From assembly GCA_964473865.1 (NCBI GenBank), contig CAYYQN010000003.1, forward strand, positions 2,545-66,544: a DNA stretch of 64,000 nt, written 5' to 3'. This document shows, in pieces, positions 25,686-55,337 of the stretch (position 1 is the first letter of the stretch; the number at the start of each line of letters is the position of its first letter). This DNA comes from an uncultured bacterium (lineage in GTDB: Bacteria > Eisenbacteria > RBG-16-71-46 > CAIMUX01). A program made the translations under genes and the position numbers. The notes below the pieces were generated by a model, which had not been told where the DNA came from, searched no databases, and saw only the letters and a list, made by a program, of their open reading frames with translations.

Positions 25686-28600
25686 TCAAGATGCTCGAGC
25701 CGGACCTTCGTGCACGACTCGCCCGCCCCCCGTGCCACCGGCGGGGCCCAACTCGACGATCCAATCGGCCGCCGCGAGGAGGTCGGTATGATGCTCCACC
25801 ACGACGACAAGATGGCCGGCGCCGGCTAGCCGCCGCAATGCAGCCACCAGGCGGTCGACATCCTCGAAACCCAGACCCCGGGTCGGTTCGTCAAGAAGGA
25901 GAGCCACCGGAGTCGCGTGCGGCTCCGCCAGAAGTCGGGCCAGCCGGATGCGCTGCCGCTCGCCTTGCGAGAGCGTCATACCCTCCTGGCCGAGACGCAG
26001 ATAGCCCAGGCCGATCTCGACCAGGGCTCGCAGGCGCTTGGTCGCCGCACGATCATGGTCGAACCATCCGGCCGTCTCCCGTAGGGGGGCGTCGAGCAGT
26101 TCCGTGATGTTCCGGCCGTCGACCCGACAGGCCAGGATCTCTTCCGAGAACCGGCGCCCCCCGCAGGTCTCGCAGCCAACGGTGACATCGGGCAGCAGGT
26201 CCATGGACACCGTAATGACACCGCGCCCCGCGCAGGCTTCACAGCGACCGCCGGCAGATGAAGACGAGAACGATCGCGCGGAGAGCCCCCGCGCTCTGGC
26301 CTGCGGACTCGTCGCGAACCGCCGGCGAATCACCTCACCCACATCGGTGAGGGAGGCCACGGTACTGGCCGCGGTGAGCGCGAGTCCTTCCTGATCGGAG
26401 CAGAGCACATCCGAGATCGGCATGTGGAGTTCGAGGTACCGGCAGCCGATCGGCGCCTGTCCACGCAGAGCGGCCCGCAATGAGGGCGCCAACACCTCCA
26501 TCACCAGGGTCGACTTCCCGCTGCCCGACACTCCCGCAACAACCACCAAGACGCCAATCGGGAAGGTCACCTCCAGGTCGTGCAGCGTGTGGCGGAATGC
26601 CCCATGAATCGTGACGCCGGGATCGAAGGTTCGCGCGAGTGGGGGCACGCTCGGCGCCGCGTGACGCAGCAGCCGCGCCGTGTAGGTGAGAGCATTGTCC
26701 CGGAGTGCGCTCGGTGGACCGCAGGCGACCAGTTGGCCGCCCTCCGCGCCGGCTCCCGGACCCAGTTCAAGGATCTGATCCGCCGCGGCCACGAACTCAG
26801 CATCGTGCTCCACGACCACCACGGCATTCCCGGCGGCCGCCAGCCCCTTCAGGACGCCGATGAGCCGCGCCGTATCTCGCGGATGGAGCCCCTGGGTAGG
26901 CTCGTCCAGGACATAGGTCGCGCCGACCAGCCCGCCTCCCAGGGCGGCCGCGAGTCGGACACGCTGGGCCTCTCCTCCGGAGAGAGTGGCCTGCTCTCGA
27001 TCCGGAGCCAGATACCCCAGGCCGGCATCACAGAGCGCCTGTAGGCGCCGGAGTAACTCGTCGCGGACCGGCCGCGTGATTGCCAGGTACGGCACGCGGC
27101 TCGCCTTCTTCGCCGCATCTTCTGCGGTCCCGCTCTGATCACCGGGTCCGCGACGCGCACCGGGCCGCTCAAGCCCGGCAGATCTCTCCGCGTCCTCGAT
27201 GCCGCTAAGCCACGCGACCAGATGATCCGCATCCAGCCGCCGGGCTTCCGGAATGCGCAGCCCGGCAAGAGACACGGCCCGCGCCGCGGGCTTCAAACGT
27301 TCTCCGTCACAGGTTTCACAGATCTGATCCACCAACAGCGGCTCCAGCTCCTCGCTTCTCTCATCGGCATGGATCCGTTCGTACTCGTTCTCCACCAGGC
27401 GAGCCAGGCCCGTCCACGGAGACACGAATCGATGCGTCCCGGCCCGCTTCCCGCGCCGGTACTCCCACGCCACCTCAAAGGTCCGATTCCCCGCGCCATG
27501 CATCGCCAGGTGCTGGGCCGCCGGAGTCAGCTCCCGCCAGGGCCCGGAGACGTCCAGACCGAGCTCGGTCGCCGCGGCCCGCAACGCCGCCAGGTGTTGG
27601 CCATCGGCCTCGCCGAGATAGGCGCCGAACCGGGTGCCCGCGAGCGCCCCGTCGTGCAGCGGCCGATCAATATGGGTCACCAGCCGAGCGGGATCGCAGA
27701 CTTGCGTGAAACCGAGGCCGCGGCAGGCGGGGCAGGCCCCCCGCTCACTGTGGGGAGAGAAGTCTACGGCCCACATCGGCTCGAGGAGTTCGCCGCACGC
27801 GCAGGCAGCTCCGCTGGTCTCTTGCTCGCACGCCGGGCAGCGCCGTACGCCCCCGCGCGCAAAGAGCAGGCGCAGGAGTTCGTCCACCTCCGTGACGGTG
27901 CCCACGGTCGCACGGGGATTGCGCCGTCCCGCCTGCGCGGGCACCGCAACGGCAGCGCGCAGGCCGTGCACCGATGCGGTTTCCGCTGCTCCCCGCATCG
28001 GGAGAAGACGGCGCGCCCACGGGGAGACCATGTCCGCGAATCGCGCCTGGGACTCGGCCAGAAGCGTGTCAAACACCAAGGAGGACTTCCCGGAGCCCGA
28101 TGGGCCCGTGACAACCGTGAGCCCCGGAAACGGAATCGACACGTCGATTCCCCGCAGGTTGTGCGTGGTGACACCCCGTAGTTCCAGGGGTACCTCCGCA
28201 CCTGAATCCTCCGCGGCGGCCCGCCCGGCCCCGGTCTCGCCGGTGGCCTCCGCGTCCGTCGGGACGAGCCCGCCGCGCGCCGCCTCGATGCTCCGAGCCG
28301 GCCAACCTGGCGCGTCTCCGGCCTGGAGCCGGAATCCATCGCGCAACGCCCCCCCGGTGGGAGCATCCGGACACGCCTCGATCTCCACAGGCGTCCCTGC
28401 GGCAATCACCCGGCCGCCGTCCGGTCCGCTATCGGGACCCAACTCGGTGATCCGGTCGGCGGCGCGGACCAGATCCGGATCGTGGTCCACCACCAGCAAC
28501 GTGTGCCCCGCTTCACAGAGCCGGTCGAACGCGGCCAGCAGCACGGCGACATCCGCCGCGTGCAGCCCGGTGCTCGGCTCATCCAAGGCGATGAGCGTAG

Positions 28601-30714
28601 GATGGGTCGCCTTCGCCAGTTCCGTCGCCAGCTTCACCCGCTGCGCTTCGCCCCCGGATAGCGTGGTGGCGGGTTGACCCAGGGGCAGGTAACCCAATCC
28701 CAGATCGACCAGGGCGTTCAGGATGCGGGACAGCCTCCGCTGCTCTCGAAAGCGGTCAGCCGCTTCCTGGATGCTCCCCTCCAGGACATCGGCGATCGAC
28801 TGGCCCTGCACCTTCACCGACAACACATCGGGGTGAAAGCGCCGGCCCCCGCAGCGGTCGCAGGTCAAGGTCACCGCGCCCAGATAGCGCATCCCCACCT
28901 CGAGCGCACCGGCTCCTTCGCATGTCTCACAGCGACCACCGGGGGTGTTGAAGGAGAAATGCCCCTTGCTCAGGCCGAGCGCCTTCGCCTCGGGCGTGGT
29001 GGCGAAGAGGTCGCGCAGGGGGTCGAACGCCCCGGTGTAGGTCGCGGCGTTGGAGCGGGGTGTGCGGCCGATCGGCTCTGCGTCCACGGTCACGATGCGA
29101 CGGAAGGCGCCTTCGTCGCGTAATCGTTCCACCGCCGCGTCGAGGAGAGAGGTCTTTCCCGCGCCGGAAACTCCGGTGATCAGGTTGATCGCGCCAACCT
29201 TGATCTCGAGCATGGCGTTCGCGACGTTATGCCGGGACAGTCCGTCCAGGACGAGCCGAGACGCCCCGACCCGCGGCGCCGACGCCCGCGCGCGGCCGGC
29301 GGCCTCACCGGCCAGCCAGCGCCGCGTGGGCGTGTCCGGACCGCCGGCCGCGAGCAGCTCCGCCGGGCGACCACTCCAGAGCAGGTTCCCTCCGTCGCTT
29401 CCGGGACCCGGACCGAGGTCGACCAGCCAGTCGGCTTCCAGAGCCACCTGCCGATCATGATCCACGACCAGGACGCTCTGACCCCGATCACACAACCGGC
29501 GCAGGACTCCCAGGAGTCGGCCGATGTCGCGCGGATGCAGGCCGGCGCTCGGTTCGTCGAGCACCACCAACAGCCCGCGCAGCTCACCCAGGGCGAGGGT
29601 CAGCAAGCGCAGGCGCTGGAACTCCCCCAGCGAAAGCGATGGCGCGCTCCGGTCGAAGGTGAGATAGCCGACACCCAGCTCTTCCATCAGCTCGCAGCGG
29701 GCCACGAGGTCTCTCTGGATGGCGGCGAAGACCGGGTTTCCGTCCGTCACGCCGCCCAGGAATCCGGCCATCTCGCGAGCCGACCGGGCGGACAGCTCGG
29801 TGATCGGCTGCCCCTGCCATCTGACCGCCCGCGCCTGCGGTCCCAGACGGGTTCCGCCACACCCGCGGCAGGAGGTCGTCCGGACGAACCGCAGAATGGA
29901 ATCGTTGCGTTTTCCCCGCAGGATCTCTTCCATCACCGGCACCAGCCCGCGGTAGTAGTCCTCCTGGCGCGGGCGCGGGGTGATGCCGGTCCATCGCAGC
30001 CGACTCTCCAGCGGATGCTTGCCGAACGGCACGAGGAGGCGCCGCGATCCGTAGAGCACAACCTGCCGGACCTCTTCCGTCAGATCCTGCCAAGGGATGT
30101 CCACCGATCCGCCGTGGGCGCGGAGAACCGAATCCAGCACCGCCAGCGTGACTTGGGAGTACATCAGGTAGCCATTGGGCGTGCTGACGCGCAGCGCGCC
30201 GTCGCGCAGCGACTTCCCGGGGTCCGCCACCAGCAGATCCAGATCCAGTCGATCCTCGAGGCCCAACCCCTTGCAGTCCGGACAGGCGCCTTCACCTCCA
30301 TTGAAGGAGAACAGACCGCGGGAGAGCCTGACCTCCGCGGGGGCGTCGCCGAGTCGGGCATACAGCAAGCGAAGCAGGTCCCACACTTCGGTGAGCGTAC
30401 CCACCGTCGATCGCGGGTTGGACAGACTCGCCCGCTGCCCGATCGCGATCGCCGGGCCCAGACCATCGACGGCGCTGACATCCGGCCGGCGAAAGCCCCC
30501 CGCGAACTGCCGGGCATACGACGGCATCAACTCCAGGAAGCGTCTCTGCCCCTCCCGAAAGAGGGTGTCGAATGCCAGTGACGACTTGCCGGAGCCTGAG
30601 ACTCCGGTGACCACAATCAGCCGTCCCCGGGGAAGCGACAGATCGAGGTTTCGGAGGTTGTGCTCCCGCGCTCCGCGGATCACGATCGCTCGACCCGATG
30701 TCTGTTCGCTCATC
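25686..30714 (-). CDS. tandem-duplicated UvrA-like ABC ATPase (four nucleotide-binding domains, ~1,676 aa); UvrA paralog lacking an obvious UvrB-binding insert
   Basis: Four Walker A motifs (GVSGSGKSSL, GVSGAGKTSL, GPSGSGKSSL, GVSGSGKSTL). Four signature/Walker B pairs (LSLGEFQRLRL degenerate, then LSGGEAQRVKLA, LSGGEAQRVRLA, LSQGERQRIRLA, each with (A/L/V)LDEP). Cys4 zinc modules (CPDCKGLG, CETCEGAG...CDRCGGRRF, CEACAGRG...CETCGGRRF). I chose the start at MSEQTSGRAIVIRGAREHNL (ATG ~30714). The track start at 30830 adds 39 aa. Confidence 0.8.
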
Positions 30715-31082
30715 TTCTGCCTGATCCACAGCGTCCTCAGGTCAACCCCGGGCGGAGCGACGCGAGACGCGCGAGTGTCGAGACCCTCGCCTCCGGCGGC
30801 CCTCGAACCAGACGCAGAGCCGTTCGCCACTGAGGCTATGGATGGCCTCGGCGTGCGGCAAGGCCCTTTTCGAAACGGGAGGACGTTCCGCAGCGCGTCC
30901 CGAGCGGCGGGTCCTGCGGCACGCTACACCCGAGCTCGGACGTGCTCTTGAATGAGCGCCGGTCGGCCCGGAGTTGCGATCCCGGTTGCCTGGTTCGTCG
31001 GGGAGCCGGTACCATTCCTCCGGATTCGTGCACTGTGCGTCGGGTCCGTGAGTCGGCCCGGATCCGGGTTTGATGGGGGATC

Positions 31083-34559: not shown

Positions 34560-35695
34560 GGGGCCTCCGAGAGCCGATCGCTCGATGTCCGTCCCGCTCG
34601 CCCCGGGCGGGGCCGGTCAGGATGGAGGGTCGACGCGAGTTCCTCCAGCACGCCGACCAGTCTCGGTCCCGGCCGCTGCAGGCGGGCCGCCCGAATCCAA
34701 CAGATCCGTCGGTCCCGCAAAGCCTCCAGCGCCGGCCAACCTGGGGTGCCCATCAACGCGCGATACGCCGCTTCCGCCTCCTTCCCCTCCGGCAGAGCGA
34801 GAAGAAGGAACCGGGGTTGATCCAGGATGATCCTTTCCAGCGACATCTGCGGCCAGCCGGGAAGAGCTCCCGCCAGATTCACGCCTCCCGCCAACCGCAC
34901 CAGGTCGTCGATGTGCGAGCCGCGGCCCGCAGTCCACGTTGGAAACTCAGGGTCGGCATAGTAGACAGTCGGTCGCTCCGCAGCCGGAATCGATGCGGAC
35001 CAGGCCTCGTACGCGGAGAGAACCTCGGCAAAAGCCGAGACGACCGCGTCGGCGCGCGCTGAGTCGTCGGGGCACGCCACGGAGCGGACCGCTTCCATCA
35101 TGGTTCCGATGCCGCGCAGTCCGGTCCGGTCCTCAAGCGCAAACACCGGCAGACCAAGCCGGCGCAGCTGCCCGAGAATCGGCCGGGGATTGCCCCGCAC
35201 GGCCAGCACAAGATCGGGTCCTTGGGCGGCGATCCTCTCGAGTGAAGGATCGACGATTCCGCCCACGATGGGCCGGCGTCGCGCCGCCGGCGGCTCGTCA
35301 CAGAACCGGGTCACCCCGGAGATCCGGCTCGAGTCGACTCCGAGTGCGAAGAGAATCTCGGTGATGCTTGGGGACAGCGACACGATGCGCTCCGGACACG
35401 GCCCGCCAGTCATCGTGTCCCCGAAGGCATCGATCATGGCAGGTCGAACTCGCGCTGGGGCAATACCCATGGACATGGCAGTCGCCTGACCTGTTTGTGC
35501 AGCATCCGGCGCGGTGGCAAGGAGGTCGCCGGGAGTGGCGGCCGGGGTGGCAGCCGCGGCGATCTGGATCGCGGCCACGGTGGCGAGCAGGCACGCGACG
35601 GTCCCGTCTGCGGGGCGGAGTGACTGCCGATCCCGTGGGGTCGCGTCCGGGAGCCGGTGAGAGGAACCGGCAGGGCCGTTTCGATGCCGGGTCAC
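34556..35695 (-). CDS. ABC transporter periplasmic substrate-binding protein (BtuF/FecB class III); start uncertain
   Basis: RIVSLSPSITEILFALG, LVLAVRGNP and YYADPEFPTW match a cluster A-2 SBP fold. The track ORF (to 35941) overlaps the upstream ATPase gene. A plausible start is the GTG overlapping the ATPase stop (GTGA at ~35693). Alternatively the start is at MSMGIAP further in. Confidence 0.6.
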   Translation of the reverse strand: MTRHRNGPAGSSHRLPDATPRDRQSLRPADGTVACLLATVAAIQIAAAATPAATPGDLLATAPDAAQTGQATAMSMGIAPARVRPAMIDAFGDTMTGGPCPERIVSLSPSITEILFALGVDSSRISGVTRFCDEPPAARRRPIVGGIVDPSLERIAAQGPDLVLAVRGNPRPILGQLRRLGLPVFALEDRTGLRGIGTMMEAVRSVACPDDSARADAVVSAFAEVLSAYEAWSASIPAAERPTVYYADPEFPTWTAGRGSHIDDLVRLAGGVNLAGALPGWPQMSLERIILDQPRFLLLALPEGKEAEAAYRALMGTPGWPALEALRDRRICWIRAARLQRPGPRLVGVLEELASTLHPDRPRPGRAGRTSSDRLSEAP

Positions 35696-36552
35696 TCCGG
35701 TGCTCCCGTGTGCTTCGTCTCGAACCGCCAGGTCACGCGTGGACGCCCCGTGTTCGGATCCACCTCCGCGCGCAGGGGTGTCCGGAACACCGGCTCCAGA
35801 TTCGCAGGAGTCAACACGGCTCCGGGCGGGCCCTCTGCGACCACCCGCCCTTGATCCATCAGGAGAAGGCGGTCGCAGAAAGCCGCCTGGAGATCGATGT
35901 GATGGTCGGCCACAACGGCCCCGACCTGGTGCTGGCGACACAACTCGCGGATCTGTTCGTAGATGTGCCGCTGGTATCCGAGGTCGAGGCTGGCCACCGG
36001 CTCATCGAGGAGGAGAACCCTGGCCTCCTGGGCGAGCGCCCGCGCGAGCAGGGCACGCTGCCACTCCCCCCCGCTCAGCGTGCCCACCGCCCGGTTGCGT
36101 AGTGCCGAAAGTCCGACGCCGATCAGGGCGCGCTCTACGACTTCCCCATCCTCCTTCCGCTCCCGCCAGGCTCGTCCTCGATGAGGATGCCTTCCAAGAG
36201 ACACCATTTCGCTAACTGTCCATTCGAAGGGGGTTTCCGCGCGCTGTGGAACCCAGGCCACCCACCTGGCCCGGTCTCGGGGAGACACCTTCTCCACTGG
36301 TTGTCCACAGATGTAGACAACCCCTCGCAGAGGTGTCGCCAACCCTGCCATGACCCGAAGGTATGTCGACTTTCCGGCGCCATTCGGGCCGAGCAGACCA
36401 ACGAGTTCTCCCGCAAGGAGTTCCAGCCGCTCTACCGACAGAAACGGCCTCCCGCCAAACCCGAAACCGATCCCCTCCGCCACGAGCAACAACTCGCCAT
36501 CGCGGGAAGAGCTCAGGCTGTAACACGTTGATTTAGATCGGGTTATGTCCAT
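35692..36552 (-). CDS. ABC transporter ATP-binding protein (FecE/BtuD-like)
   Basis: GPNGAGKST (Walker A), LSGGEWQRALLARAL (signature), LLLDEP (Walker B), H-loop. I prefer the MDITRSKST start at ~36552. The track start at 36636 would overlap the divergent DUF5658 gene. Confidence 0.8.
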   Translation of the reverse strand: MDITRSKSTCYSLSSSRDGELLLVAEGIGFGFGGRPFLSVERLELLAGELVGLLGPNGAGKSTYLRVMAGLATPLRGVVYICGQPVEKVSPRDRARWVAWVPQRAETPFEWTVSEMVSLGRHPHRGRAWRERKEDGEVVERALIGVGLSALRNRAVGTLSGGEWQRALLARALAQEARVLLLDEPVASLDLGYQRHIYEQIRELCRQHQVGAVVADHHIDLQAAFCDRLLLMDQGRVVAEGPPGAVLTPANLEPVFRTPLRAEVDPNTGRPRVTWRFETKHTGAPE

Positions 36553-36616
36553 TATTCTTGCTTCGCGGGGTGGCCCGTTGATGCCTCCCTCGTCTTCAAG
36601 TAGAATAGGAGGTGTC

Positions 36617-37084
36617 ATGCAAGCGGTCGACACCATAAGGCGCCAGGGACACGACCGCAGACGGCGTCCGACGCCGGCGCTGAGTCGCTACACCTTTCTT
36701 GGCGGCCGACGCCGAGGTCCTCGCCGAACCACCGATCCCCAAGCGGTTTACGTGGATCAACTGGGCTGGGGGCTTGTCTCGATCCTACTCCTGATCTTCG
36801 TCTTCCACGTCCTGGATGCCATGTTCACGCTGGCCCACATCGCCCGCGGGGGCACCGAGCTGAACCCGTTCATGGACTTCTTCCTCAGCCGGAGTCCCGC
36901 GACGTTCGTGGCGGCCAAACTGGGTATCGCGGGCCTGGGACTCCTCTTTCTGGCGTTTCACGGCCGGTTTCCCATGGTGCGTAAGGGAATCGCCGTGATC
37001 TTCCTGCTTTACGCCGGAGTCGTCTGCTATCACTTCGTTCTGATCTGGCGGGCCGGAGCTCCACTCTGGCCGACGATCGTCTGA
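36617..37084 (+). CDS. DUF5658-family small membrane protein with Arg-rich N-terminal tail
   Basis: GGAGG sits 5 nt before ATG (MQAVDTIRRQGHDRRRRPTPALSRYTFLGGRRRGPRRTTDP...). Then 3-4 TM helices with the conserved HVLDAMFTLAHIARGGTELNPFM motif (D..T......G..E.NP) of DUF5658. The track ORF start at 36545 is an upstream extension. Confidence 0.55.
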   Translation: MQAVDTIRRQGHDRRRRPTPALSRYTFLGGRRRGPRRTTDPQAVYVDQLGWGLVSILLLIFVFHVLDAMFTLAHIARGGTELNPFMDFFLSRSPATFVAAKLGIAGLGLLFLAFHGRFPMVRKGIAVIFLLYAGVVCYHFVLIWRAGAPLWPTIV

Positions 37085-37745: not shown

Positions 37746-38465
37746 TCACCACTGGTCGACCTCTTCAGACAGACGTGTCAGTACCTCCAGCAACCGTCCA
37801 AACTGCGCGTTCGCCACGTGGCGAGCCGGTGTCGTGCGGGAGAGACGCATGGCGTGAAGCTCGGCAAGAAGATCCGGCGGTACAGGCAAGAGCTCGGAGC
37901 AAGCCTTCCACGCCGGATCTCCTTCTTCCCGCCAGGGTCCTCCCTTCAGAAAGAGAAGTCCGCGGAAGATGGCCAGCAATGACGGCCAGCCCCGATCGAG
38001 AATCTGCTTGAGCCGTTTTGGCGCGCCTTCGCTCTCGATGTAGGCCCGGCGGACGAGCAGCAGCTTTGACCGAATCTCCCGTTCGCACTGCAGACGGACA
38101 TGCTCTGTCTGGAAGGAGAGTCCCGCCAGAGGATCGTCCCCGTGCAGCACCCGGTACCGCGCGGTCATCGACAGGAATTCCAGGGGCCACGAATCCAGGG
38201 CCCGGGCGATGAAGACTGGACGTACCACCAGGGGAGCGGAGATCCGGCGCCGGCGCCACTTCCCGGCCAGCGCCGCGAAACGCTCCAGGAGAGCAAGGTC
38301 CACTGGATCGGCCACGATCAGGAAGTTGTAGTCGGAGACACCGGGACGGAACTGCGGTCCCAGGGCGCTGCCGTATGCCACCACTGAACGGAGCGAATCT
38401 CCGGCACGCTCGCGAACGCCCTCGACGAATCCGCCGAAGACCGTTTCGTGGTCCGCCATGGTCAT
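37746..38465 (-). CDS. nucleotidyltransferase-fold protein (KNTase-like; catalytic triad apparently degenerate: GS-x11-SDYN)
   Basis: SLRSVVAYGSALGPQFRPGVSDYNFLIVAD fits the polymerase-beta-type NTase GS...DxD motif with the second Asp replaced by Asn. A ~130-aa helical C-terminal domain follows. It is wedged between lemA and a TPM gene. Confidence 0.5.
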   Translation of the reverse strand: MTMADHETVFGGFVEGVRERAGDSLRSVVAYGSALGPQFRPGVSDYNFLIVADPVDLALLERFAALAGKWRRRRISAPLVVRPVFIARALDSWPLEFLSMTARYRVLHGDDPLAGLSFQTEHVRLQCEREIRSKLLLVRRAYIESEGAPKRLKQILDRGWPSLLAIFRGLLFLKGGPWREEGDPAWKACSELLPVPPDLLAELHAMRLSRTTPARHVANAQFGRLLEVLTRLSEEVDQW

Positions 38466-38546
38466 TCTCCTCCATCGCGCGGACCTCGAGATTCCCGGGT
38501 CGTCGCATTCGTCTCTGCGGCAGATCCCGGCTCCCGACGGCCTCGC

Positions 38547-39431
38547 TCAGAATCCACGTCCCGCGCCGCCACCCCCGCTTCCACCTCCGCCAAAGCCCCC
38601 GAATCCACCCCCGCCGCCCCCGAATCCTCCGCCTCCGAAGCCCCCGAACCCTCCAAAACCTCCGAATCCGCCCCCACCGTATCCGCCGGGCCCCCGGTAG
38701 CGCCGGCGGTCCAACAGCGAGACGAGGATGACGATCCCAACCAGGATCGCCAGCAACCTGAGGCTGGTCGGGTTCGTGCGGACCGGTGTCCGCCCCGCGC
38801 CGTATCCACCCGAGGCGAGCAACGCGTCCAGTTGCGCAGGGTCTTCGCCCTGTTCCGCGAGGATCAGACCGAAGCAGGCGCGGGCCGCGGAGGCGAACGC
38901 CTGCTCCGCCTTCCCCTCGCGCAGAAACGGCACCACATCTTCGTCCAGGATCTGGCCGACGCGACCATCGTTGAGCACGCCTTCCAGCCCGTATCCAACC
39001 TCGATCCAGGCGTAGCTCTTGCCTGGTCCCCGCGCCAGGTAGAGCAGGAGGAGGCCTTGATCGGTCTTCTTGTTTCCGACCTTCCACGCCCCGAACAGCC
39101 GATTCGCGTACTCCCGCGGCTCCTCGTCGCCGATATCGGTTGTCGTGACCACCGCCATCTGGACACCGAACTTTTCGTCAGCCCGGGAGAGAAGCAGCTC
39201 CAGACGGCCGCGGGCAGGCGCGCTCAGGACCCCGGCAAAATCGTTCACATAGCCCGTGGGCCGTGGATAGTCCGACGACGACGACGACGCGGATCCCGAC
39301 CACGAGAGGAGGAGGCCGCCCAGGATTACCAGGAGGAGCGTCCGATGTCGCGATCCGGCGAGTGGACCCCACACGGGTCTCCATCCAAAGCGGCGCCACC
39401 CACCTGTGTTTCTCCGTGCCGGGACGAACAT
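38547..39431 (-). CDS. TPM-domain (YgcG-like) membrane protein with Gly-rich (GGFGGFGG...) C-terminal tail
   Basis: YVNDFAGVLSAPARGRLELLLSRADEKFGVQMAVVTTTDIG...DQGLLLLYLARGPGKSYAWIEVGYGLEG (TPM), then a TM helix, then YGGGGFGGFGGFGGFGGGGFGGGGGGFGGFGGGGSGGGG. The start could be up to 39470. Confidence 0.75.
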   Translation of the reverse strand: MFVPARRNTGGWRRFGWRPVWGPLAGSRHRTLLLVILGGLLLSWSGSASSSSSDYPRPTGYVNDFAGVLSAPARGRLELLLSRADEKFGVQMAVVTTTDIGDEEPREYANRLFGAWKVGNKKTDQGLLLLYLARGPGKSYAWIEVGYGLEGVLNDGRVGQILDEDVVPFLREGKAEQAFASAARACFGLILAEQGEDPAQLDALLASGGYGAGRTPVRTNPTSLRLLAILVGIVILVSLLDRRRYRGPGGYGGGGFGGFGGFGGFGGGGFGGGGGGFGGFGGGGSGGGGAGRGF

Positions 39432-42899: not shown

Positions 42900-43408
42900 G
42901 CAGGCTCCGGTCCGTCGATCGCCCGACATGTCCGCGCCCTCTGTCTTCCCGCAATCACAGCCCGTTCCTCCGCGGCCGGGCGGCGGGGTGAGCCGACGAC
43001 GGGTCTGTCCCCGTACCGGCCCAAAGCGCCCTCCTGCCCCTCACGAGTTCCGAAGCAAGACCTCGACGCATCTGCGAGACCATGAATCGCCCGCCCGTCC
43101 TTGTGGCCCAGGTACGCAATGTTCAGAAAGCGGTGCAGCTGATCGTCCTTGCACACGAGCTTGTCCAGCGCGTACTGGGCGATGAGCGTCTGTCGGATCT
43201 TGGCTACCCCCGGTCGGAACCCATCCGGGAAGTAGAGTAGCTTCACAAGGCCCTGGGAGAGAGTCGTCATCCCCGCCCCCGGGGTCGCCAGATCTACGCC
43301 GCGGTGGCGCCGAAACGCTGGATCCTCAACCGCAAGCAAGATGGCCTCGCGATCAGGGGACAGGTCTTCCCGGGCCTCTACCGCTTCACCCCCAGACGCA
43401 CGCCGCAC
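42896..43408 (-). pseudogene. GT51 peptidoglycan-transglycosylase-like fragment (N-lobe only, ~170 aa), probably a gene remnant
   Basis: LLAVEDPAFRRHRGVD (EDxxFxxHxG motif 1), TTLSQGLVK (degenerate TITQQL motif 2), RKIRQTLIAQYALDK...YLGH (motif 3 region). It lacks a TM anchor, the later motifs and any transpeptidase domain. It is squeezed between the ileS stop and a methyltransferase gene. Confidence 0.35.
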
Positions 43409-46400
43409 CCCTTCTCGATCTCGAGGTCTGCCGCCCGGTCCACTTCCGCGCAGCCTTCCATCAGCCGTTGGGCCAGGGTCTCTTGGGAAATGTAGTTGCC
43501 GAACGCGCCAATTACGGCCCGGAGGCGCTCATCGGTGGTCTCGTAGCCGACCGTGATCCGGTCCTCCACGTTGTATCCCGCCTGCTTGCGCAATTCCTGA
43601 ACCGCGCGGACGATCTCCCGGGCGTAGCCCTCCCGGAGCAGCTCCTCGGTGATCGCGGTGTCGATCACCACAAGAAGACCGCGGTCCCCCGCCGCGGCAA
43701 GTCCCTCGCGGCCGGCGTACTGCAAGTCGAACTCCCCCGGCTCGAGGGTGTGGCCGCCGATCTCGATCCCGCCCTCTGCGTTCTGCGTCCACGCCCCGTC
43801 TTTGGCCGCCTTGGCGACCGTCTTCATTGCCGCGCCCAGCCTGGTGCCCAGCGTGGCGAAGTTGAGCTTGAGTTCGCGCGTGACCAGCGTTTCGGTCTCC
43901 CCATGGATCAGGACCTGCTTCACGTTCACTTCCTGGCCGATCTGGACCAGGAGATCCTCGTCGAGATCGACGCCGGCGCCATCCAAGGCCAGGATCCACA
44001 TCCGGCCCAGCGGCTGTCGGACCTTGATCTGCACCTTCTCGCGCGCGGCCCGTCCGAGGCTGACGGACGTCAGGACCCGCTCCATGCGCGCGTTGAGCGC
44101 CGAATCCACCAGCTCCCGCCGCACGTCGGGATAGGGGCGCAGGTGCACGCTTTCCGGCCACTCCAAGACGTTGGGCCCCGCGGCGGCAGAACCCGCGGCG
44201 ACTGTGCCCGCGGCGGCCCTTCGCGCCTTCCGCAGTGAGCCAGTCAGGTTCCGGTAGATTTCCTCGGTCACGAAGGGCACGACCGGAGCCAGCATCTCGC
44301 TGAAGGTGACGAGGACATGGAAGAGCGTCCGGTAGGCGAACCGCTTGTCCTCGTCGGCCGTCGACTTCCAGAACCGGCGGCGCGAGCGGCGCAGGTACCA
44401 GGTGGAAAGCGCGTCCAGGAATGCATCGGCGGCTCGGAGCGAACCGGCCACGTCGTACCCCTCCAGACCCCGGGTGAAGAGCTCGAGCGTGCGATAGAGG
44501 TCCGAGAGGATCCACCGGTCGAGCGGATTCGGGCTTTGTCCGAGGGTCTGCGCCACCTGCGCCTCCGCCGGATCGAACCCGTCCAGCGAGGCATAGGTCA
44601 CAAAGAACCCGTAGACGTTCCAGAGCGTGATCAGCCGCCGGCGGATGTCGTCGGCAATGTGGTAGCCGAAGCGGAGGTTGTTGTTCGGGTTGAAGGCGCA
44701 GTAGAGCCAGCGCATGGTATCCGCGCCCATCTTCTCCACCGCCTCGGCAAGCTCGATCGCATTGCCCGATGACTTGTGCATCGGCTTGCCCTTCTCGTCA
44801 TAGACCTTCTCGTAGGAGAAGACGGTCCGGTACGGGGCACGGTCCTCCAGGGTCACGGAGGTGAACATCATCGCGTAGAACCAGAGTCGGACCTGCTCGC
44901 GCATCTCCAGTACCAGCTCGGCCGGAAACCACTTCTCCCAGTAGGACCGATCCTCGAAGTACTTGAGTGTGGAGAAGCCGACGATCCCCGCATCCAGCCA
45001 GCAGTCGCCGACGTCGAGGATCCGCCTGGCCTCCGCTCCACACTGCGCGCAATGGATCCGCACCTCGTCGATCCATGGCCGGTGCAGCTCGGGAAGCCCA
45101 TCCACCACAGCCGGATCCACCGCCCGCTCCCGCAATTCCGCGCGGCTCTGCACCACCGTGAGATGGCGTTCTGGACAGAAGTAGAACGGCAGCGGCAAAC
45201 CCCAGTAGCGCTTGCGGGAGATGCACCAGTCTCCCATGTTGTTGTACCAGTCCTGGGTCCGCTTCCCCACCGACTCCGGAATCCAGCGCACCGTGTCGGC
45301 CGCTGCCTTCATCCGCGGGCGGATCTCGTCACAGGAGAGAAACCACTCATTCTCCACGCGAAAGACAAGCTTCTCCTTGCAGCGCCAGCAAAACGGATAG
45401 CGATGCCGGTAGGTCTCCTGGCGGTAGAGAATCCCCTTCTCCTTCAGCTTCGCCAGGATCGGCTTCTCCACCTCGTGAACGTCCATGCCGGTGAGCCAAC
45501 CGAAGCCGTCGAGATAGACTCCGTAGCCGTCCAGCGGCGCAATGACGCGCAGGCCATGGACCTTGCCCAGCTCACTGTCCTCCGCACCGCATCCCGGCGC
45601 GATGTGGACGATCCCCGAGCCCTCCGTCTCGCCGACCTCGCTCCAAGGGATGACCCGATGCTCGAGCCCGGCCGCCACCGGCAGGTCGTCGAACGGCCCA
45701 TCATAGGCCCACCCAAGCATCTCACTTCCCTTCAGCTCGCCGAGCGTTTCGGCGCCCTTCCGGAAAATCGTCGCGAAGACGCCCGCCCCGAGGTAGTAGA
45801 TGTTGCCTTCGTGGCGCACGCGCAGGTAGTTGAGATCCGGGTTGACGGCTGCCGCCACATTGCTGGTCAGCGTCCACGGTGTCGTCGTCCAGACCAGGAG
45901 CGACTCCTGCGGTCGATCCTTCAGCGGAAAACGCACGAAGACCGATGTGTCCGCAACCTCTTCATAACCGTCGGCCAGCTCGTGCTGCGACAGCGACGTC
46001 CCGCAGCGCGTGCACCACGGCATCGCCTTGTGCCCTTCGTAGAGCCAGCCCTTCTCACGGCAGATCCCGAGGAAGTGCCAGATGTACTCGATGTTGGTGT
46101 CGCTCATTGTGTAGTAGGAGTCGTCCCAGCGCATCCACTGACCGAGACGGAGTGACTGCTCGGTCATGACACCGCTGTACTTGTCGACGCGCGCGCGGCA
46201 GGCCCGGGAGAAACTGTCGAGTCCGAACTGCTCAATATCGCGCTTGCTGTTGAAGCCCAGCTCCCGCTCGGTCTCCACCTCCAGCCACAATCCCTGACAG
46301 TCGAATCCGTTCTGCCAGCGCTGGTCAAACCCCCGCATCGCCTTGTAGCGCTGGAAGACGTCCTTGTACGTGCGCCCCCAGGCGTGGTGAACGCCCATCG

Positions 46401-46566
46401 GGTTGTTCGCGGTGATCGGTCCGTCAATAAACGACCAGTGCGGCCGCCCGGCGTTGCGCGCCATCTGCTGTTCGAAGATCCGCTCCTCGCGCCAGAAGTC
46501 GAGTATGCGGCGCTCCAACTGGACAAAGTCCTGTTTGAGGTTGACCGGCGCGAACATCGGCTCCAC
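43378..46566 (-). CDS. ileS: isoleucine--tRNA ligase (type 2)
   Basis: Class I aaRS HIGH-type motif PMGVHHAWG. KMSKS-type motif KMHKSSGN. CP1 editing domain. C-terminal anticodon-binding and zinc regions. 1062 aa. Confidence 0.9.
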   Translation of the reverse strand: MEPMFAPVNLKQDFVQLERRILDFWREERIFEQQMARNAGRPHWSFIDGPITANNPMGVHHAWGRTYKDVFQRYKAMRGFDQRWQNGFDCQGLWLEVETERELGFNSKRDIEQFGLDSFSRACRARVDKYSGVMTEQSLRLGQWMRWDDSYYTMSDTNIEYIWHFLGICREKGWLYEGHKAMPWCTRCGTSLSQHELADGYEEVADTSVFVRFPLKDRPQESLLVWTTTPWTLTSNVAAAVNPDLNYLRVRHEGNIYYLGAGVFATIFRKGAETLGELKGSEMLGWAYDGPFDDLPVAAGLEHRVIPWSEVGETEGSGIVHIAPGCGAEDSELGKVHGLRVIAPLDGYGVYLDGFGWLTGMDVHEVEKPILAKLKEKGILYRQETYRHRYPFCWRCKEKLVFRVENEWFLSCDEIRPRMKAAADTVRWIPESVGKRTQDWYNNMGDWCISRKRYWGLPLPFYFCPERHLTVVQSRAELRERAVDPAVVDGLPELHRPWIDEVRIHCAQCGAEARRILDVGDCWLDAGIVGFSTLKYFEDRSYWEKWFPAELVLEMREQVRLWFYAMMFTSVTLEDRAPYRTVFSYEKVYDEKGKPMHKSSGNAIELAEAVEKMGADTMRWLYCAFNPNNNLRFGYHIADDIRRRLITLWNVYGFFVTYASLDGFDPAEAQVAQTLGQSPNPLDRWILSDLYRTLELFTRGLEGYDVAGSLRAADAFLDALSTWYLRRSRRRFWKSTADEDKRFAYRTLFHVLVTFSEMLAPVVPFVTEEIYRNLTGSLRKARRAAAGTVAAGSAAAGPNVLEWPESVHLRPYPDVRRELVDSALNARMERVLTSVSLGRAAREKVQIKVRQPLGRMWILALDGAGVDLDEDLLVQIGQEVNVKQVLIHGETETLVTRELKLNFATLGTRLGAAMKTVAKAAKDGAWTQNAEGGIEIGGHTLEPGEFDLQYAGREGLAAAGDRGLLVVIDTAITEELLREGYAREIVRAVQELRKQAGYNVEDRITVGYETTDERLRAVIGAFGNYISQETLAQRLMEGCAEVDRAADLEIEKGCGVRLGVKR

Positions 46567-46674: not shown

Positions 46675-49422
<2,748 letters not shown>

Positions 49423-49539
49423 TCCGCTCGATTGCCCCCGCGCTCTCCGACTGCCTGAGGAACCCGCCTTGGGTGTGTCCCCCCGGCGCCGCGCTCCGTG
49501 TCGGCCGTGATTTTGTCGCCCCGCCGAGCTCGGCCGGCG

Positions 49540-51456
<1,917 letters not shown>

Positions 51457-51747
51457 TCATGGTTCCGGGTTTGGAGTGAACCGAATGCTGTCGATGGTGC
51501 TGCCCGGAGCGATCTCCCGGAGCCGCTCCAGCATCTTTGGCACCAAGAACGAGAGATGGTGCTGCAACACCGCGTCTTCCACATAGACCCATAGGGTCTT
51601 TCCCTGCATCCGGAGCGGCCGCGTGCGGGCGGCCAGCGGCTCGCCCACCACCTCGCGCCAGCGCGGGAAGGTCCGGTAGTTGGCCACGCCGCGCTCGAGG
51701 TCCCGGCCGCGCAGAACGGCCTCCAGGATCCCCGAGATGTGATTCAT
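51457..51747 (-). CDS. DUF721 (DciA-like) protein in the recF position of the origin cluster
   Basis: MNHISGILEAVLRGRDLERGVANYRTFPRWREVVGEPLAARTRPLRMQGKTLWVYVEDAVLQHHLSFLVPKMLERL fits the DUF721 pattern. It sits between dnaN and gyrB. The listed ORF (start 51888) has a non-protein-like N-extension. Confidence 0.55.
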   Translation of the reverse strand: MNHISGILEAVLRGRDLERGVANYRTFPRWREVVGEPLAARTRPLRMQGKTLWVYVEDAVLQHHLSFLVPKMLERLREIAPGSTIDSIRFTPNPEP

Positions 51748-51766
51748 CCCCGACACGAGCGGTCGC

Positions 51767-52912
51767 TCAGTGGGCAGCCGCGGTCTCACCGCTGCGGGCA
51801 GGCTCGTCCTGCAGCCGCAGCGGCATGACCAGACAGAGCAGGTCCGGCTTGCCTTCCCGAGGCGCGGGTTCGAAAATGCTGGCCGCACCGGCTTCCTTGA
51901 AGGAAATGCGCACCCGGTCCGAGATCATGGTTTTGAGCAGGTCCAGGAGATACCCTCCATTGAATCCGGTGCGGAACGCCGGTCCCTCGTAGTCGGCCGG
52001 CACTGCCTCGCTCGCCTCTCCCACGTCGTGGGCTTCCGCGGCCAGAGCCAGCCGTCCCGAATCGATCGTGACCTTGACCATGCGGGTCGCAGACTCGCTG
52101 AAGACGGTAACGCGACGCAGCGCGGCGGCGAGAACCTCGCGGTCGAGTTCCGCGTGGCTGTTACACCCACTGGGGATCGCCTGCTGATAGGGCGGGAATG
52201 GGCCGTCCAGGAGGCGCGTATAGAGCCGCGTATTGCCGAGGTTGAAAAGGCAGTACCGCTTGTTGGCGGAGAGAGACACCGATTCCTGGGCCTCCGAGAG
52301 CAGCCTCTGCAGGACGGCAAGGGTCTTCGTCGGCACCAGGACCTCGCCCCAGGAGGGATAGTCCGCGCTGTGAAATGACATCGCCAGGCGGTGTCCGTTC
52401 GTGGCGACAAAGCGGAGATCGCCTCCAACAATATGAACGTAGACGGCTGTCTGCTCCGGTCGGGTGTAGTCGGTGCTCGCGGCGTAAACCGTTTGGGCCG
52501 CCAGACGGGCCAACACAGAGCTCGAAACGGCAAAAACCTTCTCCTCGTTCAATTCCGGCAGTGGGGGAAATTCCTGGGGATCAGGGCCCACGATCCGAAA
52601 CCGTCCATTTCCGCACTGAATGCCAACGCCGCTGGCGGTGGACGAAATCTCCACGACATCCCCTGGCAGCTCTCGTACAACCTCCAGGAGTCTTCGCGCC
52701 GGGATCGCCGCGATCCCGGGTTGTTCGACCGCAGCATGCAGGGTCGTCACGAGAAAGGCGTCCAGATCCGTCCCGGTGAACCGGAGCTCTCCGGCAGCGG
52801 TGGCTTCCACCAGGATCGACGTCAGGTGTTGCGCCGCCGTCTTTGTGGGCACAACCCCTGCCACCAGCTGCAAGCTCCTGTACAGCTCACTCTGAACCAG
52901 CGAAAACTTCAT
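51767..52912 (-). CDS. dnaN: DNA polymerase III beta sliding clamp
   Basis: MKFSLVQSELYRSLQLVAGVVPTKTAAQHLTSILVEA is a typical beta-clamp N-terminus. Three-domain length of ~380 aa. GGAGG RBS. The track start at 53134 is an upstream extension. Confidence 0.85.
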   Translation of the reverse strand: MKFSLVQSELYRSLQLVAGVVPTKTAAQHLTSILVEATAAGELRFTGTDLDAFLVTTLHAAVEQPGIAAIPARRLLEVVRELPGDVVEISSTASGVGIQCGNGRFRIVGPDPQEFPPLPELNEEKVFAVSSSVLARLAAQTVYAASTDYTRPEQTAVYVHIVGGDLRFVATNGHRLAMSFHSADYPSWGEVLVPTKTLAVLQRLLSEAQESVSLSANKRYCLFNLGNTRLYTRLLDGPFPPYQQAIPSGCNSHAELDREVLAAALRRVTVFSESATRMVKVTIDSGRLALAAEAHDVGEASEAVPADYEGPAFRTGFNGGYLLDLLKTMISDRVRISFKEAGAASIFEPAPREGKPDLLCLVMPLRLQDEPARSGETAAAH

Positions 52913-53134
52913 GACCCCTCCCGGCACCACAAGGATCCGCTGAATGCGTCCCCTGTTGTGGTCCGCGACCGTCCCGACCCAGGGTTGTCCCCCTGACTCA
53001 TCTCTTCCGCGACCCGGAGGCAATGCGTCCGGGAGGCCCGGAATCCTGTCCCGGACGGCTTCTGACGCCAGCCCGTCTGAAACCCCGTGGAGCACATTCG
53101 GTGCCCGCACAGGATAGGAAAGGTTTCCCCTCAA

Positions 53135-53470
53135 GTAAAGTCGAAAGGCTCTCGACAGAGGCGATCTAATGAGCTAGCAGACCATTGGTTAGAGGGATGA
53201 GAGGAATCCTCTACGATACAAGGACAGAAGAAGAGTCGAAGTAGTAGGCGTGTGAGTTGGGTGAGTATGTGGAACCACGGACGGGAGGAGTCCAGACTCC
53301 AAGCGGTTGCGCCGGATGGGGTGTGGTGACGACCTGGGGACAAAGCGCGCCGCGATCCACAAGTCCGCTCCACATGGTCATTTCGACATGGAGTGCGGGC
53401 GAACCTGTTGACAGGTCGCTACCGGTGACCGCGACAACAGGATGAACCGAGAAGCCGGTCTTTGGAGGCG
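53135..53470. other. AT-rich dnaA-dnaN intergenic region (candidate DNA-unwinding element / second oriC module)
   Basis: It is visibly lower in G+C than the flanks (e.g. ggtttcccctcaagtaaagtcgaaagg...gagtatgtggaacc). There are weak box-like TCCACA motifs (GATCCACAAG, CTCCACATGG). Confidence 0.4.
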
Positions 53471-54853: not shown

Positions 54854-54887
54854 GGTTCAGACCCCCCAAAGCGGATGCGCAACAATG

Positions 54888-55337
54888 TTGTCCACAAAAT
54901 TACCCACATTGGATCACGGGGAGTAATCGAAAGCGAACTCAGGTCCAGAGCACTGGAACGCTCTTTCCGCGTCGGAACCGCACAATGTTGTCCACCGGCA
55001 GGTGTCGGCACAACCAGGTGAGGAACAAACGGTTGCGGCGAGGCCAATGCGGTTCTCCACAGGAAAGCCCAACAACTCCCCGAAAAAACGGTGGACCGCC
55101 TCGGGGGGCCGGTACAATCTCCTGCCTCCGAGGAGAGCCGGCGACAAAGGTTATTCACAACCCCCCGCGAGATCCGAAAGCGGTGCGCATCCTAGCACGC
55201 ACCCCAGAGAGGGACAATCGGAATCTGTCGGCGGGAACATATTCCCCAATGTGAAGCGGGACAGACGATTCCGGGCCGGACCGTCCCGATTCTCGCCTCT
55301 TGGGGCGAAAACGCTTTCAGTGGCGCGCTGTGGAGAA
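54888..55337. promoter_or_regulatory. DnaA-box cluster in the dnaA-rpmH divergent intergenic region (candidate oriC / dnaA autoregulatory region)
   Basis: 9-mers close to TTATCCACA: TTGTCCACA 54888-54896, TTACCCACA 54900-54908, TTGTCCACC 54988-54996, TTCTCCACA 55053-55061, TTATTCACA 55151-55159, TGTGGAGAA 55329-55337 (reverse). The leading strand switches exactly here. Confidence 0.6.

Follow-up and report, generated by a model that had tools for sequence, protein, structure and literature searches.

A double UvrA-like ATPase whose two fused units both lack the UvrB-binding domain

Introduction

The described systems closest to the protein reported here all belong to the UvrA ATPases. The class I UvrA proteins (PDB 2R6F, 3ZQJ and the 9GX entries) give the best sequence matches (33-40% identity over aligned regions). 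They share with it every ABC motif and the insertion domain, together with zinc modules 2 and 3 and the Gln/Arg residues specific to the proximal and distal sites; however, the fused protein is a tandem that lacks the UvrB-binding domain (PF17760) twice over, has zinc module 1 either lost or vestigial and carries two LSxGE signatures. The class II UvrAs (DrUvrA2, PDB 2VF7; Ecm16, PDB 7SH1; DrrC) resemble it in their two-NBD fold with an insertion domain, in having zinc modules 2 and 3 and in lacking the UvrB-binding domain; our model of the N-half spans the DrUvrA2 chain almost end to end. Nevertheless, class II proteins are chains of ~800 aa that form homodimers, whereas the fused protein holds two diverged units (36% identity) in one chain. 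Moreover, DrrC and Ecm16 are encoded inside the gene clusters of DNA-binding antibiotics, but the fused gene has no biosynthetic-cluster context. Class IIa is defined by the additional absence of the first zinc module (as cited in PMC9328131). What UvrA paralogues that lack the UvrB-binding domain do is clear only in antibiotic producers.

Polypeptides with two UvrA units are also on record. The chlamydial long UvrA (NF001885 / PRK00635) resembles the fused protein in this respect, but the latter, with 889.8 bits on NF001885, stays below the cut-off of 3054. In a Chlamydiaceae example (L076) the N-half is class I, with 444 aa from Walker A to signature, and the C-half has only one Walker A match. 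An archaeal double-length UvrA (L079) is of the I+I type. The combination of two class II-type units in a tandem-duplicated UvrA is, we presume, what has been called 'class III'. The gene described here lies in a stretch of 64,000 nucleotides (the window) and is, as shown below, of this last kind.

Results and Discussion

Gene and domain organization

The fused double UvrA-like CDS occupies one unbroken minus-strand frame from 30713 to 25686 (Table 1). Both the ORF listing and the translation bear out the first-pass annotation of the window, which had described a single uninterrupted minus-strand ORF, and the two complete UvrA-like units that it placed in tandem are indeed there. Its start at 30714, with 1,676 aa, has to be corrected: this position is one base off and gives 28 stops. 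The conserved start codon, from which the homologues also begin (consensus MxxRxxxxIVIRGAREHNL), is the ATG at 30713-30711. In the stop-to-stop listing the ORF is given as 25686..30830, from a GTG. A search of the presumed promoter region for a sigma-70 consensus found none, and none of the known LexA-box types was found upstream of the fused gene.

Table 1. Coordinates of the fused gene, its sequence features and neighbouring genes in the window.
Feature	Position	Strand	Remarks
Error-prone DNA polymerase DnaE2	14670..17975	+	NF004225 1303 bits, cut-off 939; convergent with the uvrA/radical SAM strand
SplB-like (COG1533) radical SAM gene, 395 aa	22425..23612	-	NCBIfam matches below cut-offs
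Heparinase II/III-like gene between fused uvrA and radical SAM gene	23690..25570	+	Pfam PF07940, 1.7e-12
Fused double UvrA-like protein, complete CDS	25686..30713	-	1,675 aa + stop; identical protein P0001 in public collection
C-terminal UvrA-like protomer, residues 845-1675	25689..28181	-	no UvrB-binding domain; miniature zinc module 1 kept
C-half NBD-II signature LSQGERQR, residue 1581	25950..25973	-	non-canonical third position
C-half zinc module 3, C1491/C1494/C1514/C1517	26163..26243	-	Cys conservation alignment
C-half NBD-II Walker A, GVSGSGKS, residue 1394	26511..26534	-	motif search
C-half NBD-I signature LSGGEAQR, residue 1244	26961..26984	-	canonical
C-half zinc module 2, C994/C997/C1132/C1135	27309..27734	-	surrounds insertion domain
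C-half vestigial zinc module 1, CPACEQETSGAACAC	27795..27839	-	UvrB-binding domain excised between Cys pairs
C-half NBD-I Walker A, GPSGSGKS, residue 870	28083..28106	-	motif search
Inter-half linker, residues 791-844	28182..28343	-	Pro/Ala/Glu-rich, unconserved
N-terminal UvrA-like protomer, residues 1-795	28329..30713	-	NBD-I + insertion domain, NBD-II; no UvrB-binding domain, no zinc module 1
N-half NBD-II signature LSGGEAQR, residue 685	28638..28661	-	canonical
N-half zinc module 3, C595/C598/C618/C621	28851..28931	-	Cys invariant among homologues
N-half NBD-II Walker A, GVSGAGKT, residue 514	29151..29174	-	forms N-distal ATP site with signature 360
N-half NBD-I signature LSLGEFQR, residue 360	29613..29636	-	non-canonical third position
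N-half zinc module 2, C144/C147/C282/C285	29859..30284	-	surrounds insertion domain; 4 Cys invariant in 101 sequences
N-half connector DAPAEVRLS, residues 123-131	30321..30347	-	replaces class I zinc module 1 + UvrB-binding domain (~140 aa)
N-half NBD-I Walker A, GVSGSGKS, residue 37	30582..30605	-	forms N-proximal ATP site with signature 685
Intergenic region, fused gene to divergent CitMHS_2 transporter gene	30714..31082	.	presumed promoter region

All of the four Walker A and four signature/Walker B motifs that had been claimed were found, and each Walker B follows the pattern hhhhDEP (LVVLDEP, LIALDEP, TYVLDEP and ALLLDEP). Among 101 homologues the Walker A Lys and the Walker B Asp-Glu are invariant or nearly so, and the same is true of the adenine-stacking Arg/Gln five residues ahead of each signature. 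Of the four signatures, two depart from the canonical motif throughout this set, and both have the form LSxGE. The third position in the N-half NBD-I is R in 51 sequences, P in 20, L in 16 and other residues in the remainder, but never Gly; in the C-half NBD-II it is A, E or S in the family, and the adjoining D-loop reads GLG, not GLH. The first-NBD signature is thus non-canonical, as had been stated, but to call it 'degenerate' is an overstatement, since the C-half NBD-II signature is non-canonical too and all of the catalytic residues are kept. When the Walker A motifs and signatures are paired into proximal and distal ATP sites after PMC6486640, the LSxGE signatures fall in the N-distal and C-proximal sites, and the N-proximal and C-distal ones have canonical signatures. 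The Cys4 zinc modules noted earlier number five: the N-half has two, the C-half three. The best-conserved segment of the whole protein is the zinc module 2/insertion domain of the N-half (conservation 0.87); the linker between the halves varies from 14 to 65 aa across the family (median 20), with a column conservation of 0.18.

The missing UvrB-binding domain

In line with what the first-pass annotation had supposed, neither unit contains a bona fide UvrB-binding domain (PF17760). The alignment to Bacillus stearothermophilus UvrA (2r6f) skips chain residues 138-280, with 7 query residues between positions 137 and 281, and precomputed Pfam lists give PF17760 for 0 of 120 listed family members (the identical protein P0001 among these) and for all 120 of the class I UvrAs listed. 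The distance from Walker A to signature in NBD-I had been judged too short for a class I protein, and it is short: against the ~335 aa given there, 323 aa separate the two motifs in the N-half and 374 aa in the C-half, compared with ~450-500 aa for the class I proteins examined here. The rest of a UvrA protomer is there twice: a pair of UvrA-type NBDs, the insertion domain, and zinc modules 2 and 3. At the columns of zinc module 1 the N-half has no Cys in 101 sequences, as in class IIa; the C-half keeps a miniature module, whose CxxC...CxC cysteines are found in 84-85 of 101 homologues, with the Cys pairs 9 residues apart, and which forms a confident beta-knuckle in the predicted model.

Both units are thus of the class II type, in the sense of a UvrA fold without the UvrB-binding domain, and because both lack this domain the protein is a UvrA paralogue and not the canonical UvrA of nucleotide excision repair (NER). 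The proposal of a fused class II-type pair stands as far as domain loss is concerned, but not in the sense of any special sequence closeness to the class II proteins: neither half is nearer to DrUvrA2 or Ecm16 than to class I UvrA, and Ecm16 is the weakest among the UvrA-type PDB matches.

The match to UvrA as such is far above chance. The whole protein scores 1430.6 bits on TIGR00630 (E = 0; cut-off 729.8) and 1413.5 bits on NF001503 (cut-off 1147), and UvrA chains in the PDB match it at E ~1e-188. However, it passes these equivalog cut-offs because two half-scores add up: on NF001503 the N-half has 751.7 and the C-half 669.6 bits, both below 1147, and on TIGR00630 the N-half (754.5) is just above 729.8 and the C-half (683.6) below it. 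AF2 models, made for the two halves separately, predict that both are complete UvrA protomers. The N-half model (pLDDT 83.3, pTM 0.80) has DrUvrA2 (2vf7_C) as its Foldseek match, with TMq 0.78 and TMt 0.77, and for the C-half model (pLDDT 86.2, pTM 0.75) the matches are UvrA chains, the highest TMq being 0.80.

Distribution and age of the fusion

Protein clusters with the same architecture number more than 120 (59-78% identity, 1,550-1,700 aa, 95-100% query coverage), and it is encoded by one unbroken ORF of 1,620-1,880 codons, stop to stop, in ~20 independent genome assemblies, three of which come from Geothrix isolates (G. fermentans DSM 14018, G. oryzisoli and G. limicola). The single fused gene therefore holds against the alternative of two genes joined by a frameshift. 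Family members occur in Holophagae, in Thermoanaerobaculia and in Eisenbacteria-like and Myxococcota MAGs. The N-halves cluster with N-halves and the C-halves with C-halves, the two clades sharing 12 of 13-14 parent proteins, which indicates that the fusion is old. An exhaustive search showed tandem UvrA fusions to be common in every type, I+I, I+II and II+II, with II+I found too; the II+II type makes up ~32-39 of the best 150 clusters at 50% identity, and the family of the window forms its own clade with ~12 other II+II clusters. The fused gene is a further member of a common, unstudied family.

Gene neighbourhood

The first-pass annotation was right that the fused gene is not in an operon with uvrB, though this is little informative; there is no UvrB-like gene among the window ORFs scanned, and the fused gene is the only UvrA-like one that tblastn finds in the window. 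The SplB-like radical SAM gene matches the NCBIfam models of the Rv2578c family (E 8.6e-45) and the PA0069 family (1.4e-35), both under their cut-offs. In all four of the closest relatives a SplB-like radical SAM gene is the operon partner directly downstream of the fused uvrA, and it overlaps it by 8 bp in three; the heparinase-like gene that separates the two here has no match at related loci (tblastn). The adjacent radical SAM gene is absent in more distant family members, just as the fused uvrA is absent beside more distant radical SAM homologues, and the association is confined to one narrow sub-lineage. At one related locus (L082) a DnaE2 orthologue, 84% identical, stands directly behind the radical SAM gene. 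In several phyla COG1533 genes are under LexA control (PMC4951493). The link to drug resistance or export that had been suggested finds no echo here: there are no drug-biosynthesis or export genes nearby, and the context points to DNA-damage genes.

Possible functions

Considering its scores, one might ask whether the fused protein is simply the working NER UvrA of its organism, with UvrB recruited elsewhere on the protein, for instance by signature domain II, which is part of the UvrA-UvrB interface (PMC6486640). NCBI and JGI records do label homologues 'excinuclease ABC subunit UvrA' or 'subunit A', and the whole protein is above both NCBIfam equivalog cut-offs, but these are reached only by summing two halves, the UvrB-binding domain is missing from both of them, and Ecm16, which likewise lacks the domain, does not complement a uvrA knockout of E. 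coli (PMC9328131); we consider this reading unlikely. Slightly less so, but still rather unlikely, is a DrrC/Ecm16-type factor for self-resistance or drug tolerance that clears DNA-intercalating natural products from DNA. The domain loss is that of Ecm16 and DrrC, whose insertion domain sets the drug specificity, and no part of the family's sequence is better conserved than the insertion domain of the N-half. However, no biosynthetic or efflux genes adjoin the gene in the window or at related loci, the neighbours being a transporter, glycoside hydrolases, the radical SAM gene and DnaE2; neither half is specifically akin to Ecm16; and the family is taxonomically widespread, with no biosynthetic gene clusters seen at the related loci examined.

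It is very improbable that the protein is an anti-phage defence component, a mad3-like ATPase of the PADLOC MADS system. It does match mad3 (E 3.6e-120) and mad8 (4.2e-46), but an ordinary transport ATPase of the FecE type, also encoded in the window, gives matches to mad8 and mad3 (7.4e-25) as well, so the mad3 model detects generic ABC ATPases; moreover, there are no other mad genes, methyltransferase or nuclease nearby, and detection of the system needs mad6-8 (bioRxiv 10.1101/2023.03.30.534895). As for two adjoining uvrA-like genes wrongly joined in assembly or by a frameshift, the unusual length is all that speaks for it, and the single ORF in ~20 independent assemblies, isolates included, refutes it, as do the more than 120 full-length clusters, leaving it next to no probability.

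The most likely role of the fused protein, and one that we hold with moderate confidence, is that of a single-chain, UvrB-independent ATPase that probes DNA. Architecture, domain loss, motif conservation, fusion age and spread, and gene context were computed; intramolecular pseudo-dimerisation, DNA binding, UvrB independence and the physiological role we infer. The halves, each with two NBDs, an insertion domain and the zinc hairpin module, would pair inside one chain, as two subunits do in the UvrA2 dimer, although linkers as short as 14 aa in some members may speak against this. They would yield one DNA-binding groove with four ATP sites, which may have become specialised because the fused halves are free to diverge. 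The protein would bind duplex DNA and probe it, driven by ATP, for distortions, adducts or bound ligands. Hand-over to UvrB via the canonical interface would not be possible, and we therefore propose that it acts outside UvrABC excision repair. By analogy, its action would be like that of the class II paralogues UvrA2, DrrC and Ecm16, and in this lineage it is probably part of a set of DNA-damage response genes. Points against this are the narrow reach of the radical SAM association and the lack of any known LexA-box type upstream. If the source genome has no class I uvrA, the fused protein might have to serve excision repair. In the sub-lineage with the adjacent radical SAM gene, and only there, the double UvrA could be a sensor that finds distorting lesions and hands them to the SplB-like radical SAM lyase for direct reversal without UvrB or UvrC. 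We regard this two-component scheme as decidedly unlikely; were it true, the roles of the four ATP sites would be divided between the fused halves.

Tandem UvrA fusions, whatever their type, are common but unstudied. In a UvrA 'dimer' that nature has joined into a single chain, with two of the ATP sites canonical and two altered, each of the four could be mutated alone. The family is routinely annotated 'excinuclease ABC subunit UvrA' because the half-scores sum past curated thresholds, and conclusions about excision repair drawn from such annotation can therefore be wrong for Holophagae, Thermoanaerobaculia and related MAGs. Homologues of the neighbouring radical SAM gene, for their part, carry the JGI label 'DNA repair photolyase'.

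A single-chain UvrA with two units

The fused gene lies in a minus-strand frame that the ORF listing of the window shows to run from 30830 to 25686 without interruption. The first-pass annotation was right about this single frame but placed the start at 30714 (1,676 aa), one base out of frame; the ATG at 30713-30711, which agrees with the homologues, gives a product of 1,675 aa (stop codon not counted). A motif scan recovered the ABC motifs that had been claimed for two UvrA units: four Walker A motifs (residues 37, 514, 870 and 1394), four signatures (360 LSLGEFQR, 685 LSGGEAQR, 1244 LSGGEAQR and 1581 LSQGERQR) and four Walker B motifs, and the N-half and C-half are 36% identical over 845 aligned residues (E 4e-119). 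Matches of the full-length product include the UvrA models TIGR00630 and NF001503 (E = 0), ABC_tran and UvrA_DNA-bind in Pfam, and all solved UvrA chains (E about 1e-183 to 1e-189). The two-unit UvrA-like architecture is real and far above chance, and the window holds no further UvrA-like gene.

Features of the window and of related loci
Feature	Location	Strand	Remarks
Fused uvrA CDS	25686-30713	-	ORF and homologue-supported ATG
CitMHS_2 transporter gene	from 31083		divergent, upstream of fused gene
Heparinase II/III-like gene	23690-25570	+	convergent, downstream of fused gene
SplB-like (COG1533) radical SAM gene	22425-23612	-	77-81% identical to relatives' gene; beyond heparinase-like gene
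Error-prone polymerase DnaE2	14670-17975	+	NF004225, 1303 bits vs cut-off 939
ORF next to dnaE2	17918-19441		507 aa; no family match
FecE-type ABC transport ATPase	35695-36636	-	PADLOC mad3 7.4e-25, mad8 2.7e-06
FlgD_ig-ended, predicted secreted	9139-10839	-	
FlgD_ig-ended, predicted secreted	12711-14210	-	
FlgD_ig-ended, predicted secreted	19814-22246	-	
ileS	43378-46566	-	
gyrA	46675-49422	-	
gyrB	49540-51450	-	
dnaN	51767-53134	-	
dnaA	53471-54853	-	
yidC	56280-57977	+	
jag	57599-59389	+	
Putative long ORF	38-1657	+	no Pfam match
Putative long ORFs	1414-3945	both	no Pfam match
Putative long ORF	6498-7715	+	no Pfam match
Putative long ORF	37765-39087	-	no Pfam match
Chlamydiaceae double UvrA	L076:9920-15343		N-half class I; one Walker A match only in C-half
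Archaeal double UvrA	L079:9869-15739		I+I
Marinilabiliales long form	L022:9962-12523		N-half without UvrB-binding domain; contig ends early in second unit
Double-length UvrA clusters	P0121-P0269		I+I, I+II, II+II, II+I; some ~2,340 aa

Loss of the UvrB-binding domain

The UvrB-binding domain (PF17760) that marks class I UvrAs had been inferred to be missing from the short spacing in NBD-I, and it is indeed missing from both halves, as an alignment gap in the N-half and an excision in the C-half. Residues 9-123 and 131-224 of the N-half align with 23-137 and 281-370 of the B. stearothermophilus UvrA chain, and 7 residues (the DAPAEVRLS region) replace zinc module 1 and the UvrB-binding domain of class I UvrA. 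In the C-half (CPACEQETSGAACAC) zinc module 1 retains its two Cys pairs, and the part between them is gone; these Cys are found in the C-half of 84-85 of 101 homologues, and in the N-half of none. Neither half varies in zinc modules 2 and 3 among the 101 homologues, and the ~135 residues enclosed by zinc module 2 indicate that each half has an insertion domain. PF17760 is missing from the precomputed Pfam annotation of each of the 120 family members listed, the public protein identical to that of the window (P0001) among them. Every one of 120 class I UvrAs found with an acidobacterial UvrA as query has it; so seeded, this comparison set contains Vicinamibacterales-type proteins only and is uninformative on the carriers of the fused gene.

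Structure prediction of each half, the check that the first-pass annotation had proposed, points the same way. When modelled separately by AlphaFold2 with 50 homologues each, the N-half (pLDDT 83.3, pTM 0.80) and the C-half (pLDDT 86.2, pTM 0.75) both take a confidently predicted UvrA-type fold, and their top Foldseek matches in the PDB are UvrA-type chains only. The N-half model covers D. radiodurans UvrA2 nearly end to end (TMq 0.78, TMt 0.77), whereas against the full-length class I chains 2R6F, 3UWX and 3ZQJ (TMt 0.66-0.71) part of the target is left unmatched, as the missing UvrB-binding domain predicts.

The proposal of a fused class II pair therefore stands with respect to domain content, both halves being without the UvrB-binding domain like DrUvrA2 and Ecm16, but not with respect to a closer sequence kinship: each half scores lower against these class II proteins than against class I, in the order Bst or Mtb UvrA > DrUvrA2 > Ecm16. 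The model scores have a further consequence. With NF001503, whose cut-off is 1147 bits, the N-half alone gives 751.7 bits and the C-half alone 669.6; with TIGR00630 (cut-off 729.8) they reach 754.5 and 683.6 bits. The whole protein passes these NCBIfam equivalog cut-offs because the two half-scores sum, and homologue records (P0049 and P0061, for example) are consequently named "excinuclease ABC subunit UvrA" despite two missing UvrB-binding domains.

Two canonical and two altered ATP sites

Across 101 family members there is little or no variation in the four Walker A Lys, the four Walker B Asp-Glu pairs, three of the four H-loop His and the adenine-stacking residues that precede the signatures (Arg for signature I, Gln for signature II). 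At the fourth H-loop position, in NBD-II of the N-half, Asn occurs in 53 sequences and His in 42. Signature I of the N-half reads LS[R/P/L]GE throughout the family, with Gly at the third position in none of the 101, and signature II of the C-half reads LS[A/E/S]GE, with an adjoining D-loop GLG rather than GLH. [quoted passage not shown] By this assignment, the signature and H-loop pattern gives each half one canonical and one altered site: in the N-half the proximal site is canonical and the distal one altered, and in the C-half the reverse. Related II+II clusters (both halves class II) have other combinations of altered signatures.

The first-pass annotation had called the first signature, LSLGEFQRLRL, degenerate. 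It is certainly deviant, but "degenerate" is too strong a word, as the catalytic residues are retained, and signature II of the C-half deviates as well. Other ABC proteins have active sites with signatures of the LSxGQ type, so the deviant forms are better read as a probable specialization than as inactivation.

Distribution and age of the fusion

At least 120 clusters with 58-78% identity to the window protein came out of a word-indexed search; most are 1,550-1,700 aa long with 95-100% query cover, and their source names include Thermoanaerobaculia, Geothrix/Holophagaceae, Myxococcota and "Proteobacteria". Scanning one genome per species gave 21 long-form loci, among them Geothrix fermentans DSM 14018, G. 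oryzisoli, G. limicola, two closed Holophaga MAG chromosomes and a "Candidatus Eisenbacteria" MAG, the closest relative (76%). Wherever the locus is complete, one frame of about 1,620-1,880 codons (stop to stop) holds the whole gene. An assembly artefact, in which a frameshift or misassembly joined two genes, is thereby refuted, and the two separate genes that the first-pass annotation had considered as an outcome of frameshift correction do not appear at any of these complete loci.

The N-half was also searched exhaustively with HMMER in 1.84 billion cluster representatives, and nearly all of the 150 best matches are double-length UvrAs. Classed by Walker A-to-signature spacing, these comprise 34 I+II, 32 II+II, 32 I+I and 6 II+I (N-half + C-half), the rest being partial patterns. 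So many double-length types imply that tandem fusion of UvrA is widespread and has arisen repeatedly.

The Kimura distance between the two halves of the window protein is 0.99, and those to free-standing class I UvrAs are 0.75 (N-half) and 0.87 (C-half). In a neighbor-joining tree of halves (594 well-occupied columns), which is a rough distance tree and not a robust phylogeny, the two halves of the window protein each fall among their own kind, in clades of 14 N-halves and 13 C-halves respectively. The 12 parent proteins common to both suggest that the fusion is older than this group (~13 clusters at 50% identity) and that the halves have co-diverged since. The linker between them is Pro/Ala/Glu-rich, 14-65 aa long across the family, and unconserved (0.18).

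Sequence databases contain many proteins of this architecture, and NCBIfam already has a double-length UvrA model (NF001885). Duplicated class II UvrAs presumably correspond to "class III"; our literature search found no publication defining that class, no functional study of any tandem UvrA and nothing useful on uvrA in Geothrix/Holophaga. What appears modestly new here is the two-plus-two pattern of ATP sites across the family, the probable single old fusion for this group, the narrow, lineage-specific radical SAM operon of the closest relatives (see below) and the annotation artefact from score summation.

Genomic neighborhood and probable function

All-against-all clustering of flanking ORFs at 25 loci revealed no family-wide conserved neighbor but the gene itself, save for Holophagaceae synteny. 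In the window the fused gene is solitary, between the divergent CitMHS_2 gene and the convergent heparinase-like one. In the four closest relatives (L005, L082, L083 and L084; 75-77% identity), a gene for a radical SAM protein of 395-400 residues lies directly 3' on the same strand, with an 8-bp overlap in three and a 74-bp gap in the fourth. The window has this gene too, but beyond the heparinase-like gene, which is absent from this position in the four relatives; L083 shares the upstream gene order with the window. The window radical SAM protein matches the Rv2578c (E 8.6e-45) and PA0069 (E 1.4e-35) families, both below cut-offs; its homologues are named "DNA repair photolyase" by JGI, and no sequence relative was found in the PDB. 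SplB-like genes of COG1533 have been reported to be LexA-regulated in several phyla (PMC4951493). A DnaE2 orthologue (84% identical to that of the window) directly follows the radical SAM gene in L082. Beside dnaE2 in the window there is no Pfam-recognizable imuA or imuB. The radical SAM linkage is absent from family members at ≤71% identity, and no UvrA-like neighbor accompanies four more distant radical SAM homologues, all of them on long contigs. No LexA box of seven known types was found upstream of the fused gene in 16 loci, and the fused-gene loci showed neither a sigma-70 consensus promoter nor terminator enrichment.

By analogy, the best-supported reading is that the fused protein would be the single-chain equivalent of a UvrA2 dimer, its two halves substituting for the two subunits. 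It would bind and probe DNA using ATP in a manner resembling the class II paralogues, and recruitment of UvrB via the canonical domain would be impossible. That last point makes a true NER UvrA unlikely, whatever the equivalog names suggest. Among class II proteins, Ecm16 acts without UvrA/B/C/D, requires its own ATPase and insertion domain, and is no substitute for UvrA (PMC9328131; PMC10192343); what D. radiodurans UvrA2 does physiologically is still unclear (PMC5128194).

The first-pass annotation had offered either drug resistance/export or alternative damage recognition. A drug-displacement factor is unlikely, having no supporting gene context: no biosynthetic, efflux or defense genes were seen near the fused gene in the window. 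The gene context of the sub-lineage leans instead toward a DNA-damage response over antibiotic self-resistance, so that only the damage-recognition part of that proposal is favored. The PADLOC models mad3 and mad8 match the fused protein and could imply a defense component, but they also match a FecE-type transport ATPase in the window and so are not specific; we rejected this identity as a generic ABC ATPase match.

Other features of the window

A FlgD_ig-type C-terminal domain ends several predicted secreted proteins (a beta-helix protein, an LDL-repeat/SGL beta-propeller and a GH44 glycoside hydrolase), and recurs in neighbors at the closest related loci, there with faint Por_Secre_tail matches. 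Taken with the 76% match to the "Candidatus Eisenbacteria" MAG, these domains may point to the source lineage. The window also contains the chromosomal origin region (46675-59389), with a cumulative GC skew minimum near 52 kb and a G+C content that falls to 0.60 at 52-56 kb; the fused uvrA lies ~25 kb from this region, in the orientation of dnaA.
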